In this document: piece by piece, positions 1 through 63,815 of the stretch
Numbering within the stretch: the stretch's first letter is position 1
Layout of the letters: each line of letters opens with the position of its first letter
DNA from: Escherichia coli
GTDB lineage: Bacteria; Pseudomonadota; Gammaproteobacteria; Enterobacterales; Enterobacteriaceae
Length of the DNA stretch: 64,000 bases
NCBI RefSeq assembly: GCF_002854065.1
Contig: NZ_CP024147.1
Strand: one strand, 5' to 3'
The notes under the pieces: model-generated
Database searches by the model: none
Seen by the model: the letters and a program-made list of their open reading frames with translations, nothing else
Told to the model about the DNA's origin: nothing
Translations under genes and position numbers: made by a program

Positions 1-434
<434 letters not shown>

Positions 435-468
435 TTGCCGATAACATTTGACGCAATGCGCACTAAAA

Positions 469-492
469 GGGCATCATTTGATGCCCTTTTTG
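469..492 (+). terminator. rho-independent terminator after tufB
   Basis: GC hairpin gggcatca / tgatgccc with 2-nt loop followed by TTTTTG. Confidence 0.75.
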
Positions 493-663
493 CACGCTTT
501 CGTACCAGAACCTGGCTCATCAGTGATTTTCTTTGTCATAATCATTGCTGAGACAGGCTCTGTTGAGGGCGTATAATCCGAAAAGCTAATACGCGTTTCG
601 ATTTGGTTTGCCTCGCGGTCGCGGGGTGAAAATGTTTGTAGAATACTTCTGACAGGTTGGTTT

Positions 664-1047
664 ATGAGTGCGAATACCGAAGCTCAAGGAAGCGGGCGCG
701 GCCTGGAAGCGATGAAGTGGGTCGTTGTGGTGGCATTGCTCCTGGTGGCGATTGTCGGCAACTACCTTTATCGCGACATTATGCTGCCGCTGCGTGCGCT
801 GGCCGTAGTAATTCTGATTGCTGCAGCGGGTGGTGTCGCGCTGTTAACGACAAAAGGTAAAGCTACCGTTGCTTTTGCCCGTGAAGCGCGTACCGAAGTC
901 CGTAAGGTCATTTGGCCGACTCGCCAGGAAACATTGCACACCACGCTGATTGTGGCTGCGGTTACCGCAGTAATGTCACTGATCCTGTGGGGACTGGATG
1001 GTATTCTGGTTCGCCTGGTATCCTTTATCACTGGCCTGAGGTTCTGA
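664..1047 (+). CDS. secE: preprotein translocase subunit SecE
   Basis: 127-aa ORF, hydrophobic membrane protein, sequence recognised as SecE; position immediately upstream of nusG. Confidence 0.95.
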
Positions 1048-1048
1048 G

Positions 1049-1594
1049 ATGTCTGAAGCTCCTAAAAAGCGCTGGTACGTCGTTCAGGCGTTTTCCGGTT
1101 TTGAAGGCCGCGTAGCAACGTCGCTGCGTGAGCATATCAAATTACACAACATGGAAGATTTGTTTGGTGAAGTCATGGTACCAACCGAAGAAGTGGTTGA
1201 AATCCGTGGCGGTCAGCGTCGCAAAAGCGAACGTAAATTCTTCCCTGGCTACGTCCTCGTTCAGATGGTGATGAACGACGCGAGCTGGCACCTGGTGCGC
1301 AGCGTACCGCGTGTGATGGGCTTCATCGGCGGTACTTCCGATCGTCCTGCGCCAATCAGCGATAAAGAAGTCGATGCGATTATGAACCGCCTGCAGCAGG
1401 TTGGTGATAAGCCGCGTCCGAAAACGCTGTTTGAACCGGGTGAAATGGTCCGTGTTAATGATGGTCCGTTCGCTGACTTCAACGGTGTTGTTGAAGAAGT
1501 GGATTACGAGAAATCTCGTCTGAAAGTGTCTGTTTCTATCTTCGGTCGTGCGACCCCGGTAGAGCTGGACTTCAGCCAGGTTGAAAAAGCCTAA
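1049..1594 (+). CDS. nusG: transcription termination/antitermination factor NusG
   Basis: 181-aa ORF beginning [22 protein letters not shown], recognised NusG; 1-bp spacing from secE. Confidence 0.97.
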
Positions 1595-1633
1595 CCCAGC
1601 GATCAAAAAAGCGGCGATTTAATCGTTGCACAA

Positions 1634-1672
1634 GGCGCGAGATTGGAATACAATCTCGCGCCTTTTGTTTTT
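1634..1672 (+). terminator. rho-independent terminator after nusG
   Basis: Inverted repeat ggcgcgagattg...caatctcgcgcc followed by TTTTGTTTTT. Confidence 0.75.
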
Positions 1673-1689
1673 ATGGGTCTTGCCCGTAA

Positions 1690-2889
<1,200 letters not shown>

Positions 2890-3180
2890 TGCCTTTACGT
2901 GGGCGGTGATTTTGTCTACAATCTTACCCCCACGTATGCTAACGAAAGTTAGCAGCTAAAAAGATTTGTTCGTTGGAGCCTGGCCTATCCAGGCCTCCGT
3001 CGAAGACCGCAGGAGTTTCGCAAGAAACTTAATCCCCTGCGTAGACGGTGACAGAACGGTAAGATTATTCTTTTATATTCTGGCTTGTTTCTGCTCACCG
3101 TAATTAAGACGCTCTCTCCGTTTGGAGGAGTGAAGTGAGTTCCAGAGATTTTCTCTGGCAAACATCCAGGAGCAAAGCTA
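2890..3180 (+). promoter_or_regulatory. rplJ-rplL leader region (L10 operon promoter and structured leader used for translational autoregulation)
   Basis: 290-bp non-coding interval between rplA and rplJ; the long structured leader upstream of rplJ is established for this operon; exact element boundaries not resolved by eye. Confidence 0.5.
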
Positions 3181-3678
3181 ATGGCTTTAAATCTTCAAGA
3201 CAAACAAGCGATTGTTGCTGAAGTCAGCGAAGTAGCCAAAGGCGCGCTGTCTGCAGTAGTTGCGGATTCCCGTGGCGTAACTGTAGATAAAATGACTGAA
3301 CTGCGTAAAGCAGGTCGCGAAGCTGGCGTATACATGCGTGTTGTTCGTAACACCCTGCTGCGCCGTGCTGTTGAAGGTACTCCGTTCGAGTGCCTGAAAG
3401 ACGCGTTTGTTGGTCCGACCCTGATTGCATACTCTATGGAACACCCGGGCGCTGCTGCTCGTCTGTTCAAAGAGTTCGCGAAAGCGAATGCAAAATTTGA
3501 GGTCAAAGCCGCTGCCTTTGAAGGTGAGCTGATCCCGGCGTCTCAGATCGACCGCCTGGCAACTCTGCCGACCTACGAAGAAGCAATTGCACGCCTGATG
3601 GCAACCATGAAAGAAGCTTCGGCTGGCAAACTGGTTCGTACTCTGGCTGCTGTACGCGATGCGAAAGAAGCTGCTTAA
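3181..3678 (+). CDS. rplJ: 50S ribosomal protein L10
   Basis: 165-aa ORF, recognised L10; RBS aggagcaaagctaATG. Confidence 0.97.
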
Positions 3679-3744
3679 TCGCAGTTATCTTTTTAACGCA
3701 TTCGCTTACGTATAAACTTATTCTGATATTCAGGAACAATTTAA

Positions 3745-4110
<366 letters not shown>

Positions 4111-4125
4111 GCCAACCCTTCCGGT

Positions 4126-4185
4126 TGCAGCCTGAGAAATCAGGCTGATGGCTGGTGACTTTTTAGTCACCAGCCTTTTTGCGCT
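4126..4185 (+). terminator. rplL-rpoB intergenic attenuator (partial terminator)
   Basis: Two consecutive hairpins, agcctgagaaatcaggct and ggctggtgactttttagtcaccagcc, the second followed by TTTTTGCG; position matches the known rpoBC attenuator. Confidence 0.7.
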
Positions 4186-4429
4186 GTAAGGCGCCAGTAG
4201 CGTTTCACACTGTTTGACTACTGCTGTGCCTTTCAATGCTTGTTTCTATCGACGACTTAATATACTGCGACAGGACGTCCGTTCTGTGTAAATCGCAATG
4301 AAATGGTTTAAGCGTGATAGCAACAGGCATTGCGGAAAGTGTTCCATTTTCCGGTCAACAAAATAGTGTTGCACAAACTGTCCGCTCAATGGACAGATGG
4401 GTCGACTTGTCAGCGAGCTGAGGAACCCT

Positions 4430-7400
4430 ATGGTTTACTCCTATACCGAGAAAAAACGTATTCGTAAGGATTTTGGTAAACGTCCACAAGTTCTGGATGT
4501 ACCTTATCTCCTTTCTATCCAGCTTGACTCGTTTCAGAAATTTATCGAGCAAGATCCTGAAGGGCAGTATGGTCTGGAAGCTGCTTTCCGTTCCGTATTC
4601 CCGATTCAGAGCTACAGCGGTAATTCCGAGCTGCAATACGTCAGCTACCGCCTTGGCGAACCGGTGTTTGACGTCCAGGAATGTCAAATCCGTGGCGTGA
4701 CCTATTCCGCACCGCTGCGCGTTAAACTGCGTCTGGTGATCTATGAGCGCGAAGCGCCGGAAGGCACCGTAAAAGACATTAAAGAACAAGAAGTCTACAT
4801 GGGCGAAATTCCGCTCATGACAGACAACGGTACCTTTGTTATCAACGGTACTGAGCGTGTTATCGTTTCCCAGCTGCACCGTAGTCCGGGCGTCTTCTTT
4901 GACTCCGACAAAGGTAAAACCCACTCTTCGGGTAAAGTGCTGTATAACGCGCGCATCATCCCTTACCGTGGTTCCTGGCTGGACTTCGAATTCGATCCGA
5001 AGGACAACCTGTTCGTACGTATCGACCGTCGCCGTAAACTGCCTGCGACCATCATTCTGCGTGCCCTGAACTACACCACAGAGCAGATCCTCGACCTGTT
5101 CTTTGAAAAAGTTATCTTTGAAATCCGTGATAACAAGCTGCAGATGGAACTGGTGCCGGAACGCCTGCGTGGTGAAACCGCATCTTTCGACATCGAAGCT
5201 AACGGTAAAGTGTACGTAGAAAAAGGCCGCCGTATCACTGCGCGCCACATTCGCCAGCTGGAAAAAGACGACGTCAAACTGATCGAAGTCCCGGTTGAGT
5301 ACATCGCAGGTAAAGTGGTTGCTAAAGACTATATTGATGAGTCTACCGGCGAGCTGATCTGCGCAGCGAACATGGAGCTGAGCCTGGATCTGCTGGCTAA
5401 GCTGAGCCAGTCTGGTCACAAGCGTATCGAAACGCTGTTCACCAACGACCTGGATCACGGCCCGTATATCTCTGAAACCTTACGTGTCGACCCAACTAAC
5501 GACCGTCTGAGCGCACTGGTAGAAATCTACCGCATGATGCGCCCTGGCGAGCCGCCGACTCGTGAAGCAGCGGAAAGCCTGTTCGAGAACCTGTTCTTCT
5601 CCGAAGACCGTTATGACCTGTCTGCGGTTGGTCGTATGAAGTTCAACCGTTCTCTGCTGCGCGAAGAAATCGAAGGTTCCGGTATCCTGAGCAAAGACGA
5701 CATCATTGATGTTATGAAAAAGCTCATCGATATCCGTAACGGTAAAGGCGAAGTCGATGATATCGACCACCTCGGCAACCGTCGTATCCGTTCCGTTGGC
5801 GAAATGGCGGAAAACCAGTTCCGCGTTGGCCTGGTACGTGTAGAGCGTGCGGTGAAAGAGCGTCTGTCTCTGGGCGATCTGGATACCCTGATGCCTCAGG
5901 ATATGATCAACGCCAAGCCGATTTCCGCAGCAGTGAAAGAGTTCTTCGGCTCCAGCCAGCTGTCTCAGTTTATGGACCAGAACAACCCGCTGTCTGAGAT
6001 TACGCACAAACGTCGTATCTCCGCACTCGGCCCAGGCGGTCTGACCCGTGAACGTGCAGGCTTCGAAGTTCGAGACGTACACCCGACTCACTACGGTCGC
6101 GTATGTCCAATCGAAACCCCTGAAGGTCCGAACATCGGTCTGATCAACTCTCTGTCTGTATACGCGCAGACTAACGAATACGGCTTCCTTGAGACTCCGT
6201 ATCGTAAAGTGACCGACGGTGTTGTAACTGACGAAATTCACTACCTGTCTGCTATCGAAGAAGGCAACTACGTTATCGCCCAGGCGAACTCCAACCTGGA
6301 TGAAGAAGGCCACTTCGTAGAAGACCTGGTAACTTGCCGTAGCAAAGGCGAATCCAGCTTGTTCAGCCGTGACCAGGTTGACTACATGGACGTATCCACC
6401 CAGCAGGTGGTATCCGTCGGTGCGTCCCTGATCCCGTTCCTGGAACACGATGACGCCAACCGTGCATTGATGGGTGCGAACATGCAACGTCAGGCCGTTC
6501 CGACTCTGCGCGCTGATAAGCCGCTGGTTGGTACTGGTATGGAACGTGCTGTTGCCGTTGACTCCGGTGTAACTGCGGTAGCTAAACGTGGTGGTGTCGT
6601 TCAGTACGTGGATGCTTCCCGTATCGTTATCAAAGTTAACGAAGACGAGATGTATCCGGGTGAAGCAGGTATCGACATCTACAACCTGACCAAATACACC
6701 CGTTCTAACCAGAACACCTGTATCAACCAGATGCCGTGTGTGTCTCTGGGTGAACCGGTTGAACGTGGCGACGTGCTGGCAGACGGTCCGTCCACCGACC
6801 TCGGTGAACTGGCGCTTGGTCAGAACATGCGCGTAGCGTTCATGCCGTGGAATGGTTACAACTTCGAAGACTCCATCCTCGTATCCGAGCGTGTTGTTCA
6901 GGAAGACCGTTTCACCACCATCCACATTCAGGAACTGGCGTGTGTGTCCCGTGACACCAAGCTGGGGCCAGAAGAGATCACCGCTGACATCCCGAACGTG
7001 GGTGAAGCTGCGCTCTCCAAACTGGATGAATCCGGTATTGTTTACATTGGTGCGGAAGTAACCGGTGGCGACATTCTGGTTGGTAAGGTAACGCCGAAAG
7101 GTGAAACCCAGCTGACCCCAGAAGAGAAACTGCTGCGTGCGATCTTCGGTGAGAAAGCGTCTGACGTTAAAGACTCTTCTCTGCGCGTACCAAACGGTGT
7201 ATCCGGTACGGTTATCGACGTTCAGGTCTTTACTCGCGATGGCGTAGAAAAAGACAAACGTGCGCTGGAAATCGAAGAAATGCAGCTCAAACAGGCGAAG
7301 AAAGACCTGTCTGAAGAACTGCAGATCCTCGAAGCGGGTCTGTTCAGCCGTATCCGTGCTGTGCTGGTAGCCGGTGGCGTTGAAGCTGAGAAGCTCGACA

Positions 7401-8458
7401 AACTGCCGCGCGATCGCTGGCTGGAGCTGGGCCTGACCGACGAAGAGAAACAAAATCAGCTGGAACAGCTGGCTGAGCAGTATGACGAACTGAAACACGA
7501 GTTCGAGAAGAAACTCGAAGCGAAACGCCGCAAAATCACCCAGGGCGACGATCTGGCACCGGGCGTGCTGAAGATTGTTAAGGTATATCTGGCGGTTAAA
7601 CGCCGTATCCAGCCTGGTGACAAGATGGCAGGTCGTCACGGTAACAAGGGTGTAATTTCTAAGATCAACCCGATCGAAGATATGCCTTACGATGAAAACG
7701 GTACGCCGGTAGACATCGTACTGAACCCGCTGGGCGTACCGTCTCGTATGAACATCGGTCAGATCCTCGAAACCCACCTGGGTATGGCTGCGAAAGGTAT
7801 CGGCGACAAGATCAACGCCATGCTGAAACAGCAGCAAGAAGTCGCGAAACTGCGCGAATTCATCCAGCGTGCGTACGATCTGGGCGCTGACGTTCGTCAG
7901 AAAGTTGACCTGAGTACCTTCAGCGATGAAGAAGTTATGCGTCTGGCTGAAAACCTGCGCAAAGGTATGCCAATCGCAACGCCGGTGTTCGACGGTGCGA
8001 AAGAAGCAGAAATTAAAGAGCTGCTGAAACTTGGCGACCTGCCGACTTCTGGTCAGATCCGCCTGTACGACGGCCGCACTGGTGAACAGTTCGAACGTCC
8101 GGTAACCGTTGGTTACATGTACATGCTGAAACTGAACCACCTGGTCGACGACAAGATGCACGCGCGTTCCACCGGTTCTTACAGCCTGGTTACTCAGCAG
8201 CCGCTGGGTGGTAAGGCACAGTTCGGTGGTCAGCGTTTCGGGGAGATGGAAGTGTGGGCGCTGGAAGCATACGGCGCAGCATACACCCTGCAGGAAATGC
8301 TCACCGTTAAGTCTGATGACGTGAATGGTCGTACTAAGATGTATAAAAACATCGTGGACGGCAACCATCAGATGGAGCCGGGCATGCCAGAATCCTTCAA
8401 CGTATTGTTGAAAGAGATTCGTTCGCTGGGTATCAACATCGAACTGGAAGACGAGTAA
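4430..8458 (+). CDS. rpoB: DNA-directed RNA polymerase subunit beta
   Basis: ORF track 4397..8458; the RpoB N-terminus [20 protein letters not shown] begins at 4430 giving 1342 aa. Confidence 0.98.
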
Positions 8459-13510: not shown

Positions 13511-13512
13511 CA

Positions 13513-13535
13513 AAACCCACCTTAAGGTGGGTTTC
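13513..13535. terminator. hairpin terminator overlapping yjaZ stop; stronger on minus strand
   Basis: Stem cccacc/ggtggg with ttaa loop; plus strand followed by only TTT, minus strand followed by TTTTGTTATTTT. Confidence 0.6.
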
Positions 13536-13837
13536 GCCAGAGAATTATCTCTGGTATTCAGAACGCCATTACCGGACTTTGCCTTGACCTTGCGATAATC
13601 GCAGGTTGCGGGATGTCTGAATTTCTTCAGTCTGCTGCATCCTGGAAGATGAGAACATGTGTTCTTATTTTCGTCTCTATCATAGTTGAGTATTTACTCT
13701 CTTACAATCAGATCTCTTTCATTGCTCAACAGGCGATGGCTTCAGACTTTGCATTACGGAATTTTTAAGAAAGGCAGGGCGAAACGAGGAAGAAGCTTTT
13801 CGCCCTGGACAACATTCCTGCTGACGGCACTACCATA

Positions 13838-19329: not shown

Positions 19330-19480
19330 GAAGCAAGAGACGATCGCCGCAAAGGCGATGCGATAGCAGATTAACTCTTGTTCCCTTCGCAGGTATTAGC
19401 CTGATCAGGTTCCGCGGATCCCGAATAAACGGTCTCAGCCAGTTAAGGCACTCCGACAAGAAATTAGCCCCCACAAACGG
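19330..19480 (-). promoter_or_regulatory. TPP riboswitch (thi-box) in thiC leader
   Basis: Minus-strand leader contains ...GGGGUGCCUUAACUGGCUGAGACCGUUUAUUCGGGAUCCGCGGAACCUGAUCAGGCUAAUACCUGCGAAGGGAACAAG... with the conserved CUGAGA thi-box; boundaries approximate. Confidence 0.8.
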
Positions 19481-31307: not shown

Positions 31308-32849
<1,542 letters not shown>

Positions 32850-32934
32850 CCTTAAAGAAGCGTTCTTTGCAGTGCTCACACAGATTGTCTGATAGAAAGT
32901 GAAAAGCAAGGCGTCTTGCGAAGCAGACTGATAC

Positions 32935-33010
32935 GTCCCCTTCGTCTAGAGGCCCAGGACACCGCCCTTTCACGGCGGTAACAGGGGTTCGAATCCCCTA
33001 GGGGACGCCA
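32935..33010 (+). tRNA. gltV: tRNA-Glu (UUC) in 16S-23S spacer
   Basis: gtccccttcgtctagaggcccaggacaccgccctttcacggcggtaacaggggttcgaatcccctaggggacgcca, 76 nt cloverleaf with anticodon-loop cctttcacgg. Confidence 0.97.
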
Positions 33011-33203
33011 CTTGCTGGTTTGTGAGTGAAAGTCGCCGACCTTAATATCTCAAAACTCATCTTCGGGTGATGTTTGAGATATTTGCTCTTTAAAAATCTG
33101 GATCAAGCTGAAAATTGAAACACTGAACAACGAAAGTTGTTCGTGAGTCTCTCAAATTTTCGCAACACGATGATGAGTCGCAAGAAACATCTTCGGGTTG
33201 TGA

Positions 33204-36107
<2,904 letters not shown>

Positions 36108-36199
36108 CAACGCCGAAGATGTTTTGGCGGATTGAGAGAAGATTTTCAGCCTGATACAGATTAAATCAGAACGCAGAAGCGGTCTGATAAAACAGAATT

Positions 36200-36319
36200 T
36201 GCCTGGCGGCCGTAGCGCGGTGGTCCCACCTGACCCCATGCCGAACTCAGAAGTGAAACGCCGTAGCGCCGATGGTAGTGTGGGGTCTCCCCATGCGAGA
36301 GTAGGGAACTGCCAGGCAT
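36200..36319 (+). rRNA. rrfE: 5S ribosomal RNA
   Basis: TGCCTGGCGGCCGTAGCGCGGTGGTCCCACCTGACCCCATGCCGAACTCAG...GGAACTGCCAGGCAT, 120 nt. Confidence 0.98.
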
Positions 36320-52896: not shown

Positions 52897-53017
52897 TACT
52901 TCTCCGGTTAGTAAGAAATCACGGAAGGAATGCTACCACTGCGAATTTAACCACTTACTGACATGGCTCACGATGTCACGTATTGCACAGGCGCTGAGAC
53001 TGATGACAAACACAGCA

Positions 53018-53120
53018 TTGCCTGATGCGCTACGCTTACCTGGCCTACCAGATAACTGCAATATATTGAATTTTCAAAATTATGTAGGCCGAATAAGGCT
53101 TTATTCCGCATCCGGCATAA
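53018..53120. repeat. REP elements at pepE / sor operon junction
   Basis: gcctgatgcgctacgcttacctggcctac and gtaggccgaataaggctttattccgcatccggca. Confidence 0.8.
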
Positions 53121-53277
53121 ACAATGTGTACTTTGCCACCAATTTGAGCGCCCCTTAAGGCGCTGATGTTTTTTTATCCTTCTCGTGCACATTGGGCCGC
53201 TTCAGCAATCAGCCGCACATCAGGTCGCGAAGTTGCCGCGGCGACCAGCCAGCGACATGCAGAGTTAAGTAGCGCGA

Positions 53278-54507
53278 TTAATCATGGGAAATTGCCTCTG
53301 CATGAGTGAGCAGATATTGCTCCGCCTCACCGGACCAGATCCCCTGATGACGCGCCAGAATCGCCGCCAGTGCTTGATCCTGAATCTGCGTGAGTGACGT
53401 CAGCGGCAGGTATTTCCCGGTATACACCAGCTTTTTGCCGCCGCCGACGGCAGGCAATTCAAGCGTGGTTTCGCCCGCGGCATTCAGCCCAAGAATATGT
53501 GTTACCACTTTTGCGGCCTGCACTTTTTTCTCTTCGATCAGTTTGACCGCCGCGCGCATGTCGTCGGTATTGCCGCCTGACGTGCCCACGTAGTGGGTAA
53601 ATGCATAATGCACATCGTAGAAATTAATTGGCGCGCTGAAATGTTTATCCTGCGGTCCGGCGAAGAAATTCAGGCAACCATCTGTCGCCAGCAAGGAAGA
53701 GGCGAGAGTCACCAGTCCTTCATTAGGCACAAAGACGAAAATATCATCGAAGCCGTGACCGCCACTCAGCGCCATTAGCGTATCAAATGCTGCATCGGTG
53801 GCATTGAGATAATGAATCAGTGTTTGCGATTCTGATGGATAGTGCTTGCGCGCATAACTCAATTTATCGTTGTCGGTATCGGTAATGACGAGCAGCGACG
53901 GGTTAACGGGTCCATGCAGCGCATAATCAATCGCCAACAGTCCCATTGGTCCGGTGCCGCCGAGGATCAGCGTGCGCCCTTGCGGGCGAATCCCCATCGT
54001 GTGGTTATAACTACCTTCCTGAAGATGATAGTTGGCGTTGAACGCGCCAATCACGCAGGAAAGCGGTTCAACCAGCGAGCCTTCAAAATAGGTTTCGCCG
54101 TCGTATGCCAGCAGGCAATCTTGTTCCATGACCTCGTTGGGAATAACCACATGCGTGGCTTCGCCGCCTACCCACGGGAAGGAGTAGCCGGGGCAGTCCG
54201 GGCGGTCGGGGAGTTGCAGGTTGGCCTGAATCACATAACGCTGACCCGGCTGGAATTTGTGCTGCCACTTTTTACCCACGGCCAGAATATCGCCGCAAAA
54301 CTCGTGGCCGATGATGATTGGGTTGGTCGCCACATCGTCGGGTACTTTTTTATGGTTTTCACCCAGGTTGGCCTCTTTCCAGGAAGAGAGGCACAGGCTG
54401 TCAGTGACCACCGTCGCGAGGATTTCTTCCTCCTGCATTTCAGGAAGGTCAAAGGTTTCCAGGCGTAAATCACGTTTACCATAAAGACGCAGAGCTGTTG
54501 TTTTCAT
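53278..54507 (-). CDS. sorE: L-sorbose-1-phosphate reductase (zinc-dependent MDR dehydrogenase)
   Basis: 409-aa product from MKTTALRLYG; GHEFCGDI zinc-ADH motif and Rossmann GGTGPMG; last gene of seven-gene sor cluster. Confidence 0.8.
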   Translation of the reverse strand: MKTTALRLYGKRDLRLETFDLPEMQEEEILATVVTDSLCLSSWKEANLGENHKKVPDDVATNPIIIGHEFCGDILAVGKKWQHKFQPGQRYVIQANLQLPDRPDCPGYSFPWVGGEATHVVIPNEVMEQDCLLAYDGETYFEGSLVEPLSCVIGAFNANYHLQEGSYNHTMGIRPQGRTLILGGTGPMGLLAIDYALHGPVNPSLLVITDTDNDKLSYARKHYPSESQTLIHYLNATDAAFDTLMALSGGHGFDDIFVFVPNEGLVTLASSLLATDGCLNFFAGPQDKHFSAPINFYDVHYAFTHYVGTSGGNTDDMRAAVKLIEEKKVQAAKVVTHILGLNAAGETTLELPAVGGGKKLVYTGKYLPLTSLTQIQDQALAAILARHQGIWSGEAEQYLLTHAEAISHD

Positions 54508-54558
54508 AAACCACCTCATGTTGAGCGATGGCCCCGGCAGTCGTGCCGGGGCGAAGAA

Positions 54559-55383
54559 TCAGGACAGGAAGCCCAGCGCATTGCCGATAATTCCTAAGCC
54601 AAACAGGGCGAAAATCAGCCATACCGGGTTAATTTTTTTGTTGAGCAGACGAACCATTAGTAGCGTCAGACCGAGCGCCAGCAAACCAGGGCAAAGTTGG
54701 TCGAGAATGTTCTGCACGGTCATGGTGACGGTGGAGCCATCGGCGGCATGCGTTTGTGAAACCACCAACGGTACGTTGATTGACGTCCATTTGGTGACCA
54801 GCACGCCCATCACAAACAGTCCGAGAATCGACGCGCCTTCGGTGAGTTTTTGCAGCACATTCCCGCCCATATCGCTGACGATATTCACCCCTTTGCGAAA
54901 GCCGAGCTGTAGGCCATACCACTTCATCGCCAGACGCACCGCGTTGAAAATAAAGAAGAACAGCAGCGGGCCGAGAATGTTGCCCGAAAGTGCCAGAGAT
55001 GCGCCGAGCGCGGCGGTAATCGGGCGCAGCGTTCCCCAGACCAGTGGGTCGCCAACCCCTGCCAATGGTCCCATCAGACCGACTTTGATGCCGTTAATGG
55101 TACCGTCATCAATTTCCGCGCCGTTGGCCCGCGCCTCTTCCATGGCGGCAGTGACGCCGATGACCGGGCCACATACGGCTGGCGTGGTATTGAAGAACAC
55201 CAGGTGTCGCCTGAGCGCCGCAACCTGATCCTCTTTTAATGGGTAAAGTCGCTTGATGGCGGGGATCATGTCGTAGCAAAAACCCAGCCCGTGAATACGT
55301 TCAAAGTTAAAGGACGCCTGTTGCAGGTTGGAGCGCAGAAACATGCTCACCAGATCGCTGCGTGTAATTTTTCTCTGTTCCAT
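54559..55383 (-). CDS. sorM: PTS mannose/sorbose-family EIID component
   Basis: 274-aa product from MEQRKITRSDLVSMFLRSNLQQASFNFERI, resembling ManZ N-terminus; multi-TM. Confidence 0.8.
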   Translation of the reverse strand: MEQRKITRSDLVSMFLRSNLQQASFNFERIHGLGFCYDMIPAIKRLYPLKEDQVAALRRHLVFFNTTPAVCGPVIGVTAAMEEARANGAEIDDGTINGIKVGLMGPLAGVGDPLVWGTLRPITAALGASLALSGNILGPLLFFFIFNAVRLAMKWYGLQLGFRKGVNIVSDMGGNVLQKLTEGASILGLFVMGVLVTKWTSINVPLVVSQTHAADGSTVTMTVQNILDQLCPGLLALGLTLLMVRLLNKKINPVWLIFALFGLGIIGNALGFLS

Positions 55384-55393
55384 GATGGCTCCG

Positions 55394-56191
55394 TTAATCG
55401 TCAAGTTGGTCAAGGGCGGTGGAGGCGGTGGCCTGGAGTTGAGGTTCAGCTTTACGCCACTGTGGATTTAGCTGGATGTAGACCAGGGCCATGATCACGC
55501 CGACGCCACCGAACGCCAGCAGACTGAGATCGAGGTAGCCACCTGCGAGGAAACCGAGGAAAAAGAAAGGCATCAAATATTTCACGCCCATCATACGTAG
55601 CACCATGGCGTAACCGACCACCACGATAAAACCGCCAGCAATCTGTAGTCCTCGGGTCACAAATTCGGGAATGGCGTTTAACATATTGCTGACCATATCG
55701 GCGCTGACGAACAGCGAGACAATCAGTGCCGGAATAGCAACGCGCAGCGCCTGCACGCCAAGCGCGGAGACATGCAGAATATCGAAAGTGCGAAACCGCG
55801 CCTCTTCCGCTGCTTTATCCGCCGCGTGCTGGAACACTACGGTGATGGTACGGGCAAACACCGTCAGCACCTGGCCTGCCGCAGCCACAGGCAACGCGAT
55901 GGCGATTCCGGTGGCGATGCTTTGCTGACCAACGATAACCAGAATGGCGGAGATTATGCTGGCGAGTGCAGAGTCCGGAGATTGCGCCGCGCCGACGTTC
56001 ATCCAGCCGAGAGCTATCAATTCCAGCGTACCACCGAGTATTATTCCGGTTTTTAAATCACCGAGAATTAAACCAATCACCGTACAGGCAATTAACGGGC
56101 GATGAGTCTGAAATTCATCCAGCACGCTGCCCATTCCGGCAATACAGGAAAAAAGAAATATAGCAATAATTTGTAGGGTACTTATTTCCAT
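55394..56191 (-). CDS. sorA: PTS mannose/sorbose-family EIIC component
   Basis: 265-aa hydrophobic ORF MEISTLQIIAIFLFSCIAGMGSVLDEFQ, ManY-like. Confidence 0.8.
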   Translation of the reverse strand: MEISTLQIIAIFLFSCIAGMGSVLDEFQTHRPLIACTVIGLILGDLKTGIILGGTLELIALGWMNVGAAQSPDSALASIISAILVIVGQQSIATGIAIALPVAAAGQVLTVFARTITVVFQHAADKAAEEARFRTFDILHVSALGVQALRVAIPALIVSLFVSADMVSNMLNAIPEFVTRGLQIAGGFIVVVGYAMVLRMMGVKYLMPFFFLGFLAGGYLDLSLLAFGGVGVIMALVYIQLNPQWRKAEPQLQATASTALDQLDD

Positions 56192-56256
56192 GATTTGTCA
56201 CCTTTTAAGTGTCGTCATCCCTGCCTGTTAAAGCATATGTACACAGGCGCTATTAT

Positions 56257-56751
56257 TTAATTTGCGATTAACTGTTCGTTTATTTTGTCGATAATATTGA
56301 TTGAGGGATCTGACGCTACGACGCGTAAATCCAATATGACGCCAAGATTATTTAACTCATGAAATGCGTTAATATCATCATCATCTAATGAAACCGCTTT
56401 GGTTAACTGTTTTTTACCGGGCCGCCAGGCCATGCCGCCAATATTCAGGGTGCCTATTTTTACCCCCTGGCGAACCATCGCTAAGGCATCCTGTGGGCGA
56501 GTGAAAAGATAAAAAACGGTTTCGTCCTGATATTGCGGGTTGTGATAAACCGCGATGGCTTTTTCAATATTGACCACGTTAACCTTCATTCCCGGTGGCG
56601 CAGCCTGACGCAATAATGTCCGGCGAACTTCATCGTTATAAACTTCGTCATTGCAGATAATAATGCGCTGGGCGTTAGCCACTTTCGACCAGACGGTAGT
56701 GACCTGACCGTGGATCAGGCGGTCATCAATGCGGGCGAGCGTAATGTTCAT
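56257..56751 (-). CDS. sorB: PTS mannose/sorbose-family EIIB component
   Basis: 164-aa ORF with RIDDRLIHGQV phosphohistidine motif of EIIB-Man family. Confidence 0.8.
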   Translation of the reverse strand: MNITLARIDDRLIHGQVTTVWSKVANAQRIIICNDEVYNDEVRRTLLRQAAPPGMKVNVVNIEKAIAVYHNPQYQDETVFYLFTRPQDALAMVRQGVKIGTLNIGGMAWRPGKKQLTKAVSLDDDDINAFHELNNLGVILDLRVVASDPSINIIDKINEQLIAN

Positions 56752-57158
56752 CAGAAATCCTCCTCTGTCGTTGCCAGTTGTTTCCAGACAACGCAGGATT
56801 GCTTTGCGATTTGCGTCAGGTGTTCACACAGTTCATCAACATTCATGCTGTCCTGGTTATCAACCAGTTCGAGGGCCAGCGGCAGAGAAAGGCCGCTGAT
56901 TACCCGCAGACGAGGATTGCGCATCGCAAGCATCGCTGCCGCATTCCACGGGCTGCCGCACTGTAAATCCACGGTAATCAGCCACTCATCTTGATTGTGA
57001 ATGCTTACTAACTTTTCCAGCTTTGCTACGATGTCTCCGGCGTTCTCGCCGGGCACAAATTCAACGGCTTCAACATTGGTGTTGCCGTAAACCATCTGAA
57101 CCGATTCCAGCATGGCGCAAGCTAATTTGCCGTGGGCACAAAAAATGGCGTTGACCAT
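56751..57158 (-). CDS. sorF: PTS mannose/sorbose-family EIIA component
   Basis: 135-aa ORF MVNAIFCAHGKLACAML, EIIA-Man fold. Confidence 0.78.
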   Translation of the reverse strand: MVNAIFCAHGKLACAMLESVQMVYGNTNVEAVEFVPGENAGDIVAKLEKLVSIHNQDEWLITVDLQCGSPWNAAAMLAMRNPRLRVISGLSLPLALELVDNQDSMNVDELCEHLTQIAKQSCVVWKQLATTEEDF

Positions 57159-57167
57159 AAAGCCTCC

Positions 57168-57974
57168 TTATCCGCGCGTTTTGCCGCCCGCAATGTTAGT
57201 GGTTACTCCGGTGATGTAGCTGGCGCGTTCAGACAACAGATAACAAACAAAATCAGCGACTTCTGCTAATCTTCCGGCGCGCCCAATAGGAATGGCGTTT
57301 TTGGTATAGCCTTCACGCAGCTGCTCGACGGTGATATTGCGCGTCCACGCCAGCGCCTCTTCATATTCCGGCGTGCGTAGCCCGGTTTTTTCCAGAATCC
57401 CCGGCGCGATACCGACCACACGGATACCGTGTTTACCCAGCTCTTTCGACCAGGAGCGCGTGAAGCTATTGAGCGCGGCTTTGGTAGCGGCGTAACAGCT
57501 TTGTCCTTCTGAGCCTTCCAGTCCACTTTCTGAGGAAACATTCACAATCACGCCATCATGTTGTTTGACCATCTGTCGCGCCACCGCCTGCGACATCAGA
57601 AAAACGCCTTTCTGGTTGATATTGACCATTTTTTCGAATACAGCTTCGTTGAGTTCATACTTCCCGGCAGGCGCTTTCTCATCGACCAGCAGACGCGGGA
57701 AATTGACCCCGGCGTTATTGACCAGACCGTCGATGCGACCAAAACGCTGGATAATTTCCGCTACCGTATGATTTACCTCTTTGGCGCTGGAAATATCGGT
57801 CGGCCAAAACTGATAGCCTTTATGACCTTCATATTGTCCATCGCCACCGTGAATATCGACCATCTGTACATTCGCGCCTTGTGCTAATAATTCCTCTACA
57901 ATAGCCAGACCAATACCGGATGCGCCGCCGGTGACGATAATGATTTTATCCTGCAAATTTAACCACGTTTGCAT
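57168..57974 (-). CDS. sorD: SDR-family sorbitol(glucitol)-6-phosphate dehydrogenase
   Basis: 268-aa ORF with TGGASGIG cofactor motif and catalytic YxxxK (YAATKAAL). Confidence 0.8.
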   Translation of the reverse strand: MQTWLNLQDKIIIVTGGASGIGLAIVEELLAQGANVQMVDIHGGDGQYEGHKGYQFWPTDISSAKEVNHTVAEIIQRFGRIDGLVNNAGVNFPRLLVDEKAPAGKYELNEAVFEKMVNINQKGVFLMSQAVARQMVKQHDGVIVNVSSESGLEGSEGQSCYAATKAALNSFTRSWSKELGKHGIRVVGIAPGILEKTGLRTPEYEEALAWTRNITVEQLREGYTKNAIPIGRAGRLAEVADFVCYLLSERASYITGVTTNIAGGKTRG

Positions 57975-58043
57975 AACAGACTCCTGATTTTAGATAATAG
58001 GGACCCGCCGTAATTTTTATTACGATAATCATCGGGAAGATTT

Positions 58044-58991
58044 TTATTTCAGTAATAGTTCAGCTGTGCTGCTATTCGTTACCAGACAATTAATATATTT
58101 TCCACGCAGTGCACCAATAATTCCGCTGTATTTTTCTTCACTCATGGCAATGCCAATTGAATATCGTGCCTGCTTTAATTTATTCATTTCGATAGAGAGT
58201 GTTTTTTCGCTCATATTCGTTTCAACCATTGCGCCGTGAATATCAAAAAAGCGCGAGCAAATATCGCCAGCAACCTGGCGGGCATTCAGGTCGTCACTCT
58301 CTTCACCACCATAAAACGCATGCCAGTTAGCGCCGTCGCGAATGGCCGGTGAGCCAATTCCCACCAGGGCGACATCCAGATTATCCCAGTAGGCAGAGAT
58401 GGTTTTAAAGTGCTGAGACTGCATGATCCCATTACGAATTAAGGGGTTATCCAGCAGAGCCGGAAAATCCGCGAGATGCGATTCCCCTTTCAGCTTCGCA
58501 GCCGCGCTGTAGGTTAATGTGTTTACGTGATAGCGGCTTTCGAGTTTACCGGACGGTCCGCCAATAATTGGTACGCAGATTAACTGCCGCGATTGCCCCG
58601 CCTGCGGCAAGTTTTCAACCAGTGCGCTCACCGCGCGACCCCAGGAAAAACCGACAATATCGCCAGGCTCCAGCAAGCGATCCAGCAGTTGCGCGCCGTG
58701 TAACCCCATCATCGCCAGTTGAGTCTCTTCATCCTCATCATTTCCCGACACCACCACAACGTCTTTCAGGCCAAACTTTTGCTTCAGTTGCTGCTCCAGC
58801 CAGAGATTTTCGTTGTAGTCATAGTTGATGGCGATGGTGACAATTCCCTGATCGCGGCCTCGTTTAAGCAAGCGGCTGATGGTGGTGCGGTAAATACCCA
58901 GTTCGCGCGCGATTTGCGCCTGCGTCATATCCTGTTCGTAATAGAGTTGGGCAATCTTCACAATCAAACGGATATCGTCACTGTTTTCCAT
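58044..58991 (-). CDS. sorC: SorC-family transcriptional regulator of the sorbose operon
   Basis: 315-aa product from MENSDDIRLIVKIAQLYYEQDMTQAQIARELGIYRTTISRLL (N-terminal HTH) plus sugar-phosphate-binding domain; track ORF N-terminally extended. Confidence 0.8.
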   Translation of the reverse strand: MENSDDIRLIVKIAQLYYEQDMTQAQIARELGIYRTTISRLLKRGRDQGIVTIAINYDYNENLWLEQQLKQKFGLKDVVVVSGNDEDEETQLAMMGLHGAQLLDRLLEPGDIVGFSWGRAVSALVENLPQAGQSRQLICVPIIGGPSGKLESRYHVNTLTYSAAAKLKGESHLADFPALLDNPLIRNGIMQSQHFKTISAYWDNLDVALVGIGSPAIRDGANWHAFYGGEESDDLNARQVAGDICSRFFDIHGAMVETNMSEKTLSIEMNKLKQARYSIGIAMSEEKYSGIIGALRGKYINCLVTNSSTAELLLK

Positions 58992-59338
58992 TGCCGCCTC
59001 CTGGTTCTGCACATTTGTGCAAATACGCTTTCTCACCGCTTGATCTGATATAACCCCATCATGATGGCCTTTCAAAGCGATTTTTCACTCTTTGCATGGG
59101 GAGAAATAGCGCTTTCTCTTGCACATTTGTTTCTCTGCGCAGTAGTCATCAGCACAGGTGTGCAGCGATTCGTAATATGTTGATTATCCTTATTTTGACA
59201 GGCAAATTTGCATTGTACTTCCGGAGACACTTTTGTGATAAAAGGCGTGGCAGATCACATTTAATTTCGACGTTGCCGCATAACCCTGTTTTTCCCCGCT
59301 AAGAGGTACGGTATATTCCGCGTTTTACAGGAGAATTT

Positions 59339-60211: not shown

Positions 60212-60484
60212 TCAGCGCCTGCCGCGCGTCGACGTATTTGCTGACCAGCTAAATGACGCTTCAGGATCCGGTTTATAAGCCTGCTTTTTCTTCAATTGGC
60301 GGGCTTTTTTTGCTTCAGCCTCACGCTCAACCATTAATTTATCGATGTAATCTTTCTTAATGCTGTTGGTTTCGGAGTTGGTCAGTACGCGACCATGCGC
60401 AATCCGCGCCCGATCCAGCAGTGTTTTAAGTTCACGCTGCTCGCGTTCAGTCATCTCTTTTTGGGTAATACGGGGGAGTGCCAT
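60212..60484 (-). CDS. yjbD: DUF3811 family protein YjbD
   Basis: 90-aa basic ORF MALPRITQKEMTEREQRELKTLLDRA; stop codon abuts rluF stop. Confidence 0.85.
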   Translation of the reverse strand: MALPRITQKEMTEREQRELKTLLDRARIAHGRVLTNSETNSIKKDYIDKLMVEREAEAKKARQLKKKQAYKPDPEASFSWSANTSTRGRR

Positions 60485-60582
60485 GATGGTGCCCTCAGTG
60501 AGCCAGAGAGTTCAGTGTACGGGAATTCGTTTGCGAGCAGAACTGATAATATTCCTTTGTTCTCTTCGGTAATGACTCCAAC

Positions 60583-61086
60583 TTATTGATAGTGTTTTAT
60601 GTTCAGATAATGCCCGATGACTTTGTCATGCAGCTCCACCGATTTTGAGAACGACAGCGACTTCCGTCCCAGCCGTGCCAGGTGCTGCCTCAGATTCAGG
60701 TTATGCCGCTCAATTCGCTGCGTATATCGCTTGCTGATTACGTGCAGCTTTCCCTTCAGGCGGGATTCATACAGCGGCCAGCCATCCGTCATCCATATCA
60801 CCACGTCAAAGGGTGACAGCAGGCTCATAAGACGCCCCAGCGTCGCCATAGTGCGTTCACCGAATACGTGCGCAACAACCGTCTTCCGGAGCCTGTCATA
60901 CGCGTAAAACAGCCAGCGCTGGCGCGATTTAGCCCCGACGTATCCCCACTGTTCGTCCATTTCCGCGCAGACGATGACGTCACTGCCCGGCTGTATGCGC
61001 GAGGTTACCGACTGCGGCCTGAGTTTTTTAAATGGCGGAAAATCGTGTTGAGGCCAACGCCCATAATGCGGGCGGTTGCCCGGCAT
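60583..61086 (-). CDS. insB: IS1 transposase InsB (expressed as InsAB by -1 frameshift)
   Basis: 167-aa [54 protein letters not shown], overlapping insA in -1 frame. Confidence 0.97.
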
Positions 61087-61280
61087 CCAACGCCATTCAT
61101 GGCCATATCAATGATTTTCTGGTGCGTACCGGGTTGAGAAGCGGTGTAAGTGAACTGCAGTTGCCATGTTTTACGGCAGTGAGAGCAGAGATAGCGCTGA
61201 TGTCCGGCAGTGCTTTTGCCGTTACGCACCACCCCGTCAGTAGCTGAACAGGAGGGACAGCTGATAGAAACAGAAGCCAC
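61005..61280 (-). CDS. insA: IS1 protein InsA
   Basis: 91-aa [46 protein letters not shown], zinc-finger plus HTH. Confidence 0.97.
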
Positions 61281-61330
61281 TGGAGCACCTCAAAAACACC
61301 ATCATACACTAAATCAGTAAGTTGGCAGCA

Positions 61331-62035
61331 TCACCCGTTGGTGCTTTCCCAGCTTAATGCCGCTGAGGTGGTTTTTATCATGACTTCTGTTCGGTAGCCT
61401 GCATCTTTGAGTTTTTTTAATGTTTGTAGCGGCGTAGCGGCATTACGAAATGTTCCTTCGACAACAATATTGAGTTTATTGGCTATGGCCCTCTCTATTG
61501 CACGTTCGACCGTTTCGCCGGAAAATTTTGCCGTATGGGTAACAAAATCGTCGCCATAAGTTTGATATATATAATTAAAATCAGGGTGTAGAAATCTGAA
61601 ATCATCACCATTAATAATCATTATATTATTCTTTGTTTCCCTTTTTGCTAATTCGATTAGGGCGGATTTTCCGGCTCCTGGTTGTCCACCTAAAACAAAA
61701 CCAATGGGACTCTGCTGGGATGTGACGTCATGGTTTGTCAGACGCTGCCAAATAGAATCAAAAGACGCTTTATTTTCTGAATGCGCAGTATTATTAAATT
61801 CACGCTGATACTTTTTTCTGACCTGCTGGAGGCGTAACTTTTCCTGTGTAAAATCAACAAGTTCTGCTTGAGTGGAATAAAGATTGTCGCGATAGCTGAC
61901 TAATTGTGATAGCTCATCGTCTGAGTCCTGAACTTGTGAGGAAAAACAACTGTCGACGATATTTGATAAAAACGCGATGCACTGACTGGCGCCGTTTAAA
62001 AGTGCATCCTTTTCCATTAAAGTAGCCATTAACAC
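61331..62035 (-). pseudogene. zeta-toxin-family P-loop kinase with N-terminal extension (EzeT-like), 3-prime end truncated by IS1
   Basis: Walker A GGQPGAGKS and colinear similarity to zeta/PezT toxins; stop codon TGA is formed by bases 3-5 of the IS1 inverted repeat. Confidence 0.7.
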
Positions 62036-62173
62036 TCCTGTTAAATGATATTTTTCGGTGATTGTAATACTGTTCTACAGGAGTGATTTTGCTTTTCAGA
62101 TATTATTTAATCTATGTTTTCAGTGAGGATGGCGTATAACAATTGGTGAGCGTTATACGCCAGTAGGGAAATA

Positions 62174-63523
62174 TTACTCAAACAAATTAAAATGCAGCTT
62201 CTGCACCACCTGCTCGGCATCTTCGCCGGGTACCAGGAAGCACAGGTTATGGCTGGATGCGCCGTAACAAATCATGCGAATGTTGAACGGTTCCAGTACG
62301 CCGAATACCTCTTTGCCAACGCCGCAGGCTTTTGACAGGTCATTGCCAATCAACGCGACCAGCGCCAGACCTTCTTCCACCTCCACCCGGCACAGTGCGG
62401 AAAGCTCCATCAGCAGAGATTGCGTCAGCAACGTATCGCCAGTGGAGGTTGAACCGGTGGTATCAAGGGTTAATGCCACGCTCACTTCTGACGTGGTGAT
62501 TAAGTCTACCGAAATATTATGCCGCGCGAGGATGCCGAAAACTTCCGCGAGGAAACCGCGAGAATGCAGCATATTCAGGCTGTGCAAAGTGAGCAGAGTC
62601 TGATTGCGACGAAGCGCCAGCGCGCGGAACAGCGGCGGATTTTCAGTTTTATTGCACACCAGCGTACCACCTGCGCGTGGGTCTTTGCTGGAGCCGACAA
62701 AGACCGGGATATCGCTGCGTACTGCGGGTAGCAACGTTGCCGGATGCAGTACTTTTGCACCAAAAGTTGCCATCTCTGCCGCTTCGGCAAACGCGATTTC
62801 ATCAATGCGTTTTGCTGCGGAAACTACGCGTGGATCGGTGGTGTAGATGCCCGGGACGTCGGTCCAGATATCAACACGAGATGCGTGTAAAGCCTCCGCC
62901 AGCAAGGCTGCCGTATAATCGCTGCCTCCACGGCCAAGCGTCGTTGTACGACCTTTATTTTCGCTACCGATAAATCCCTGGGTGATCACTAAGCCTTCAT
63001 TGAGACGTGGGAGCAGCTGCAGCGCGGCCAGTTCCGCCAGCGCGGCTATATCTGGCTCTGCACGACCAAATCGGTCGTTGGTACGCATCACTTTACGTAC
63101 ATCAAACCACTGTGCCTGAACATCGCGTTCGCGCAGGATCTCAACAAACAGCAGGGTCGACATCAGCTCGCCGTGGCTGACCAGCTCATCTGTCAGCGCC
63201 GGAGACGTTGCCAGCGCCGCCGCTTCTGCCAGAACAGTAATGTTCTCCAGCAGACGTTCAATCTCTTCACGGATAACGTTCGGGTAACGCAGACGTTCCA
63301 GAATGGCAAACTGGATGTTGCGAATAGCGTCGAGTTTTTCGAATCGCTCGCCAGGTTCCAGTCCTTCAGCTAAAGCGACCAGCAGATTAGTGATACCAGC
63401 AGAAGCCGAGAGGACAACTAAACGCACGTTGGCATCAGAAAGCACAATATCAGCGCTGCGGTTCATGGCGTCAAAATCAGCTACGCTGGTACCGCCAAAT
63501 TTGGAGACAACAATTTCAGACAT
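62174..63523 (-). CDS. lysC: lysine-sensitive aspartokinase III
   Basis: 449-aa ORF MSEIVVSKFGGTSVADFDAMNRSADIVLS, recognised LysC. Confidence 0.96.
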   Translation of the reverse strand: MSEIVVSKFGGTSVADFDAMNRSADIVLSDANVRLVVLSASAGITNLLVALAEGLEPGERFEKLDAIRNIQFAILERLRYPNVIREEIERLLENITVLAEAAALATSPALTDELVSHGELMSTLLFVEILRERDVQAQWFDVRKVMRTNDRFGRAEPDIAALAELAALQLLPRLNEGLVITQGFIGSENKGRTTTLGRGGSDYTAALLAEALHASRVDIWTDVPGIYTTDPRVVSAAKRIDEIAFAEAAEMATFGAKVLHPATLLPAVRSDIPVFVGSSKDPRAGGTLVCNKTENPPLFRALALRRNQTLLTLHSLNMLHSRGFLAEVFGILARHNISVDLITTSEVSVALTLDTTGSTSTGDTLLTQSLLMELSALCRVEVEEGLALVALIGNDLSKACGVGKEVFGVLEPFNIRMICYGASSHNLCFLVPGEDAEQVVQKLHFNLFE

Positions 63524-63815
63524 AACTACCTCGTGTCAGGGGATCCATTTTCAGCCTTGGCACAAGGGAAGAGCGGAAGACGGGTGGGCGCAGAGCGATA
63601 CTTCGCTACTATTTTCACCCAGAAGTGCTCCACCACTTGCGAAACGCCCGACTGCGAACGCTTCTGGTGACAACCCAGGGGATTCAGCCCCTGTAGCCGA
63701 TGATGAACGTGGCCAGCCGTTCAATCACCTCGGCGATGCACCCCCTCAGGTGTTATCACAGGACTGGCTCCTCCAACACCGTTACTTGGGCAACGCGCCT
63801 CTTCTGGCCTGCGCT
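63524..63815 (-). promoter_or_regulatory. lysine riboswitch (LYS element / L-box) in lysC leader
   Basis: About 290-nt minus-strand leader reading ...GAGGCGCGUUGCCCAAGUAACGGUGUUGGAGGAGCCAGUCCUGUGAUAACACCUGAGGGGGUGCAUCGCCGAGGUGAUUGAACGGCUGG..., matching the lysC riboswitch as I recall it. Confidence 0.8.

Follow-up and report, generated by a model that had tools for sequence, protein, structure and literature searches.

The stretch of E. coli DNA analyzed here, a window of 64,000 nucleotides, carries a short zeta-toxin-like ORF between lysC and an IS1 element, which raises the question of whether this ORF is a working toxin gene or what is left of one. In this work, we found that the ORF very probably represents the 5′ three quarters of ezeT, cut by an IS1 insertion and by stepwise IS1-mediated deletion. 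Its conserved flanks, as placed by the ORF list of the window and by relatives, are lysC (aspartokinase III; 62174..63523, minus strand), directly upstream of ezeT, and yjbD (DUF3811; 60212..60484, minus strand), on the far side of the ezeT islet.

The minus-strand ORF of 234 aa that the original prediction placed between lysC and IS1 is present at 61331..62035 and ends in ...SWESTNG*. The real start is probably the ATG at 62029 and not the GTG at 62035 of the ORF listing, because the GTG falls within the Shine-Dalgarno sequence AGGAG (62039-62035), which sits 5 nt before the ATG, and because the ATG is the RefSeq start in strains XJ34 and CUWW06. With this start, the truncated gene (ezeT′; 61337..62029, minus strand) has 231 native codons, the translation of which equals residues 1-231 of the intact XJ34 allele. 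It encodes the cis-antitoxin domain (approximately residues 1-83), followed by the N-terminal two thirds of the zeta-type UNAG kinase. The lysC-ezeT intergenic region (62030..62173, minus strand), which holds the ezeT upstream signals, is intact by sequence comparison, with 100% identity to XJ34 and 142 of 144 positions identical to the EzeT reference locus. It measures 144 bp from the ATG to the lysC stop and not the predicted 138 bp; the accompanying claim that no epsilon-like antitoxin ORF lies upstream was upheld. A scan of this spacer for consensus promoters gave nothing above chance, which fits the published description of the ezeT promoter as weak, with a -10 element and no -35 element (PMC4803016). 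The remaining ORF is probably still transcribed and translated as a 232-aa product, composed of 231 native residues and one Gly.

On the minus strand, the junction reads AAC (N231), G|GG (Gly), and TGA. The last native base is 61336, and the junction alignment places the fusion codon GGG (one native base and two IS1 bases) together with the stop codon at 61331..61336. Because the left inverted repeat (IRL) begins right after native base 61336, the TGA (61333-61331) is IS1 sequence, namely, bases 3-5 of the IRL, and mapping of the IS1 end thus bears out the idea of a stop codon inside the inverted repeat. The element is a 768-bp, IS1B-type IS1 (60568..61335, minus strand) with mapped terminal repeats and its ORFs present. 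The IRL (61313-61335; beginning GGTGATGCTGCC, in full GGTGATGCTGCCAACTTACTGAT) abuts ezeT′, the right inverted repeat (IRR) lies at 60568-60590, and the element contains insA (61005-61280) and insB′ (60583-61086). There are 0 mismatches over 768 bp between this element and the IS1B-annotated copies at the same locus in strains CUWW06 and ET201. IS1 is 768 bp long, has imperfect terminal inverted repeats of approximately 23 bp, and expresses insA/insB′ with a programmed frameshift; a 9-bp target-site duplication is expected after a simple insertion. No such 9-bp duplication was found at the IS1 flanks of the window (GCACCAACG versus GAAGAGAAC), which points to deletion or recombination after insertion. 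A simple insertion was rejected, as the target-site duplication is missing and the 3′ end of ezeT is absent. Of the proposal that the toxin locus was inactivated by IS insertion, the truncation by IS1 holds; a plain insertion does not, since deletion took two more genes.

The assignment to the zeta family was supported by several comparisons. The Pfam model Zeta_toxin (PF06414), the HMM check proposed in the original prediction, matched the ORF significantly (E 2.8e-32) and covered model positions 10-140 of 199 alone, which indicates that the domain is truncated. A phmmer search of PDB with the intact allele retrieved PezT (2p5t, E 2.6e-32) and zeta (1gvn, E 1.1e-27), with alignments extending to residue ~299, and reproduced the matches to zeta and PezT strings that had been drawn by eye. 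The PezT model of NCBIfam matched EzeT below threshold (129 bits versus a cut-off of 470). EzeT is said to have been described by Rocker and Meinhart in 2015 as a single-chain zeta toxin of E. coli. The allele of E. coli XJ34 is intact and begins with the 231 native residues of ezeT′; the retained 838 bp have 100% nucleotide identity with this strain, in which the gene runs to 309 codons (309 aa). The intact XJ34 allele in turn shares 89% amino acid identity with EzeT WP_000212693.1 over 308 aligned residues without gaps (88% for residues 1-231), and the reference EzeT locus encodes WP_000212693.1 at the same site, directly downstream of lysC. According to a 2023 review, this protein is EzeT, a dual toxin-antitoxin validated by experiment, and is associated with lysC (PMC10532202).

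The domain layout also agrees with EzeT. The original prediction described a long N-terminus before the P-loop (~115 residues versus ~40 in zeta), and we measured 113 versus ~38. In the AlphaFold2 model of the intact allele, this region forms a three-helix unit (residues 4-27, 32-51, and 60-73) that is followed by the kinase. These helices, the 89% identity to WP_000212693.1, and the site by lysC bear out the single-chain EzeT layout. In the published work, full-length EzeT is harmless, and cells with EzeT-deltaN83 lyse and accumulate UNAG-3P below 30°C (PMC4803016; PMC4826407), and EzeT(1-82) neutralizes the deltaN83 toxin in trans (PMC4803016). Both the UNAG 3′-kinase activity and the low-temperature toxicity have been reported for the reference EzeT alone (PMC4803016). 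The window ORF has the Zeta_toxin domain, the N-terminal cis domain of ~80 residues, the position, and the close identity to WP_000212693.1; it does not have a complete kinase domain, as the native sequence stops at N231. The ORF at 61331..62035 is therefore a truncated EzeT member, i.e., a pseudogene and not a functional member. It shares with EzeT the site directly downstream of lysC and the architecture of an N-terminal cis-antitoxin joined to a zeta-type UNAG kinase, but it belongs to a minority allele class and lacks residues 232-309 because of IS1. Compared with epsilon/zeta of pSM19035 and PezAT of Streptococcus pneumoniae, the kinase is homologous (E 1e-27 to 3e-32; predicted-fold TM 0.76-0.81), and the Walker A, catalytic Asp, and EGTxR motifs are common to those systems and the window allele. 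However, their antitoxin is a separate upstream gene, whereas the window locus has ~75 extra N-terminal residues in its stead.

Comparison with genomes lacking this IS1 copy recovered the intact 3′ end (XJ34, 309 aa) and confirmed that IS1 cut off the C-terminus, since the intact alleles have 78 residues more than the window copy (residues 232-309). Three motifs that are invariant in a 40-sequence family alignment are retained in the stub. The predicted Walker A motif (P-loop) GGQPGAGKS was found at 61664..61690 (minus strand; G114-S122, including Lys121). Asp142 (61604..61606, minus strand) corresponds in the phmmer alignment to zeta Asp67 and PezT Asp66, which is the catalytic base (PMC3062530). 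EGTFR (E191-R195; 61445..61459, minus strand) aligns with zeta EGTGR, such that R195 corresponds to zeta R120, which contacts the UNAG phosphates in the zeta structure (PMC3062530). Beyond the cut lie nine residues that are invariant among the same 40 sequences, namely, R233, R245, D253, V255, L259, N262, F285, I299, and E302. R233 and R245 correspond to zeta R158 and R171; mutational work by Meinhart et al. in 2003 reportedly established the functional importance of the latter two. We found no mention of these two zeta residues in PMC3218275. Among the claims made for the lost part, the loss of these arginines and their invariance stood, but the label of substrate-binding arginines was imprecise, as the residue that corresponds to the UNAG-contacting R120 is the retained R195.

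The structural model gives the same picture of the loss. The AlphaFold2 model of the intact allele (pLDDT 89.5, pTM 0.88) had zeta 1gvn_B (TM 0.76, rmsd 1.7 Å) and PezT 2p5t as its best Foldseek matches (TM 0.76-0.81). In this model, the cut falls within the helix of residues 223-239, and the truncation removes the helix 249-268, the strands 274-278 and 283-286, and the helix 295-304. Residues 232-309 are missing from the kinase fold, and with them two invariant arginines. Although the 232-aa polypeptide keeps Lys121, Asp142, and the EGTFR motif, we infer from this loss that it is a non-toxic, non-functional pseudogene product, and both kinase activity and toxicity would have been lost. The capacity for stable folding was probably lost as well.

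Among 5,426 complete E. coli genomes, the retained 838 bp were found in 1,433, always as a single chromosomal copy annotated as "zeta toxin family protein." The 3′ 236 bp of ezeT were found in 1,431 of these, the exceptions being CUWW06 and ET201. A natural homologue ending at the same residue, named in the original prediction as grounds for abandoning it, thus did not emerge. The window allele class is a minority, with ~47 of the 1,433 genomes at ≥95% nucleotide identity. The common class (~1,384 genomes, ~89% nucleotide identity) encodes WP_000212693.1. Between the two classes, codons 1-83 (the cis-antitoxin) have 77% amino acid identity, compared with 91-94% for the kinase (to residue 308). 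The truncation in ET201 affects the EzeT-reference allele, involves an IS1 in the opposite orientation, has its junction 4 bp further (after codon 233), and has another distal endpoint. A shared ancestry of the ET201 and window events was rejected, as the allele class, the IS1 orientation, and both junctions differ. Two other inactivated forms of ezeT were seen in public protein clusters. In one, represented by 79 member sequences, a frameshift leaves 230 aa; the other has an in-frame loss of 19 aa, which takes out FRFLHPDFNYIYQNYGDD beside the catalytic Asp.

The ezeT-IS1 junction of the window is shared with CUWW06 alone among the 5,426 complete genomes. RefSeq annotates the identical stretch of CUWW06 as a pseudogene ("zeta toxin family protein; incomplete; missing C-terminus"). 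Flanking the deletion that distinguishes them, the two sequences have 100% identity, along 3,433 bp on the side that contains IS1 and along 872 bp on the opposite side. In CUWW06, the deletion is limited to 217 bp: the last 19 bp of ezeT remain beside IS1, and the nucleotidyltransferase and slipin genes behind them are intact. The window lacks a further 2,420 bp (CUWW06 locus 4909-7328), which contain the genes for the RlaP-type nucleotidyltransferase and the slipin, and this deletion ends 83 bp upstream of yjbD. Relative to XJ34, IS1 replaces 1,271 bp in the window (XJ34 locus 5839-7109). At the distal endpoint, 83 bp of the yjbD upstream region remain beside the IRR (60485..60567), and window position 60567 corresponds to XJ34 locus 7110 and to CUWW06 locus 7329.

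A fixed junction at one end of the IS and an endpoint that moves outward are the signature of IS-adjacent deletions. We infer the order and mechanism of these events as follows. IS1 would have entered ezeT after codon 231, and IS1-mediated deletion would then have started at the opposite end of the element and advanced in two or more steps, with the ezeT-side junction remaining fixed. The first step would have removed 217 bp, i.e., the rest of ezeT except its last 19 bp, and this state is preserved in CUWW06. The second step would have removed the further 2,420 bp with the nucleotidyltransferase and slipin genes, giving the state seen in the window. The deletions may have arisen by transpositional adjacent deletion. 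Recombination between this IS1 and a second copy upstream of yjbD would explain them equally well, given the 12 genomes with IS1 near the endpoint and the insertion in strain G3/10 ~5 bp away. CUWW06 may also be a cousin rather than a true intermediate, with both states derived independently from a simple insertion that was not observed. IS-adjacent deletions without target-site duplications, which start small and then grow, have been documented in E. coli (PMC11708052). The IS150 deletions of the long-term evolution experiment show the same fixed junction, the same outward steps, and the same lack of target-site duplication (PMC11708052). The present case differs from that one in its element, IS1, and in that the steps are reconstructed from natural isolates and were not followed over time.

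Other explanations were weighed against this scenario of IS1 insertion and deletion. That the ORF is a natural, untruncated short zeta-like protein is next to impossible. All that speaks for it is a frame that opens with a start codon and closes with a stop codon, but the stop codon is IS1 sequence, the identical DNA in XJ34 runs on for 78 codons, and the Pfam model, PezT, and zeta all reach past the cut. With the IS1-derived stop, the XJ34 continuation, and the presence of the 3′ end in 1,431 genomes, a natural short isoform was rejected. An assembly artefact, in which an IS1 in ezeT (as in CUWW06) was merged with another upstream of yjbD and the 2.4 kb between them was dropped, would account for the distal IS1 junction, which was found in none of the 5,426 complete E. 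coli genomes and is represented by this assembly alone. It would also agree with the presence of IS1 upstream of yjbD in other strains, such as G3/10, ~5 bp away. However, the 64-kb window crosses a complete rrn operon as well as IS1, as expected when repeats have been resolved; assemblies from short reads usually end at IS1, as seen among the draft contigs with the 232-aa product. We therefore regard an artefact as exceedingly unlikely, and even if one had occurred, ezeT would be truncated at the same codon.

A more biological alternative is that the stub is still useful and that recurrent truncation was selected; it could work alone as an antitoxin or anti-addiction factor when zeta/EzeT-type toxins come in, or it could have a dominant-negative effect. 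The stub keeps the whole N-terminal antitoxin domain, which as EzeT(1-82) neutralizes the toxin domain in trans (PMC4803016), and its upstream region and ribosome-binding site are intact. An index of public assemblies lists the exact 232-aa product in 126 blocks, and in ET201 an allele of the other class was truncated independently by IS1 at a distance of 4 bp. Yet such truncations occur in only two of the 1,433 complete genomes with ezeT, and clonal sampling of one lineage explains the abundance in assemblies. Of the contigs inspected that encode the 232-aa product, some run on into insA and others stop at the IS1 border or shortly after entering it, and the 126 blocks fit a sampled clonal lineage. 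Full-length EzeT is already self-neutralized, such that a benefit is not obvious, and a fragment that breaks off midway through a kinase-core helix would, according to the model, likely misfold. The clustering of IS1 is explained by a local target preference (AACG), and IS1 recurs upstream of yjbD too. We consider it very unlikely that the stub is useful. In a related proposal, ezeT codons 231-233 are a recurrent IS1 target, and their disruption is favored by selection: both allele classes, hit independently within 4 bp, kept the antitoxin domain and a dead kinase stub, which would act as an orphan antitoxin or protect against addiction by zeta-type toxins that enter the cell. This proposal appears similarly improbable. 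The preferred reading remains a gene remnant left by IS1 insertion and IS1-mediated deletion, and an EzeT remnant with IS1 decay is a known system undergoing ordinary gene decay, i.e., biology that has already been described.

The sites occupied by IS1 at this locus have features of their own. The IS1 junctions of ET201 (locus 4100-4950) and of the window are 4 bp apart and both follow an AACG motif, and two insertions within 4 bp would be a coincidence of ~1% if insertion were uniform over 930 bp. This suggests a local IS1 hot spot in ezeT, with ACCAACGAACGG as the candidate region. The AT-rich region upstream of yjbD (60485-60567 in the window) is also prone to IS1, which is present there in 12 complete genomes. 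In strain G3/10 (locus 2293-3069), there is a clean IS1 insertion with the 9-bp duplication GGCAAAATG, ~5 bp from the deletion endpoint of the window. The site of this insertion is a K-12-type empty site without ezeT.

In most genomes with ezeT, two convergent genes follow it, and together they form a lower-GC islet of ~3.4 kb between lysC and yjbD (reference locus 5001-8430). One gene encodes an RlaP-family nucleotidyltransferase (263 aa; PF10127, E 1.4e-96) and the other a slipin/SPFH-Band 7 protein (375 aa; PF01145, E 7e-24), for which the NCBIfam HflK/C matches were weak. In a PADLOC scan, none of EzeT, the nucleotidyltransferase, and the slipin had a meaningful match. The G+C content of ezeT (41%, versus 54% for lysC) suggests that the islet may have been acquired. 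In K-12 MG1655 (4231632-4231883), the islet is absent and the lysC-yjbD spacer is 252 bp; its first 122 bp, counted from the lysC stop, are unrelated to the sequence of genomes that carry the islet. XJ34 (locus 6056-6664) has an IS-free deletion of 1,364 bp that takes most of the nucleotidyltransferase gene and the 3′ end of the slipin gene and leaves ezeT intact, which indicates that the islet erodes by several routes.

The EzeT module of this strain is in all likelihood dead, which matters little beyond annotation, and the locus offers no new insight into toxin-antitoxin biology. The islet of ezeT, the RlaP-type nucleotidyltransferase, and the slipin is being worn down stepwise by IS1, and the window and CUWW06 together provide a natural example of a nested series of IS1-mediated deletions. 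The truncated locus could act as a lineage marker.

Further observations concern other parts of the window. A second variable islet lies at this locus beyond rluF, where the window (53000-59100) and XJ34 carry genes for a SorC-type sugar-binding regulator and an SDR oxidoreductase together with PTS genes, whereas rluF is directly followed by pepE in 07-4299, ET201, G3/10, and K-12. The Rfam search of the window found ordinary E. coli features, namely, a complete rrn operon (16S, tRNA, 23S, and 5S; 31308-36317), sroH and a TPP riboswitch (13512-13672 and 19365-19465), and the lysine riboswitch of lysC (63615-63811).
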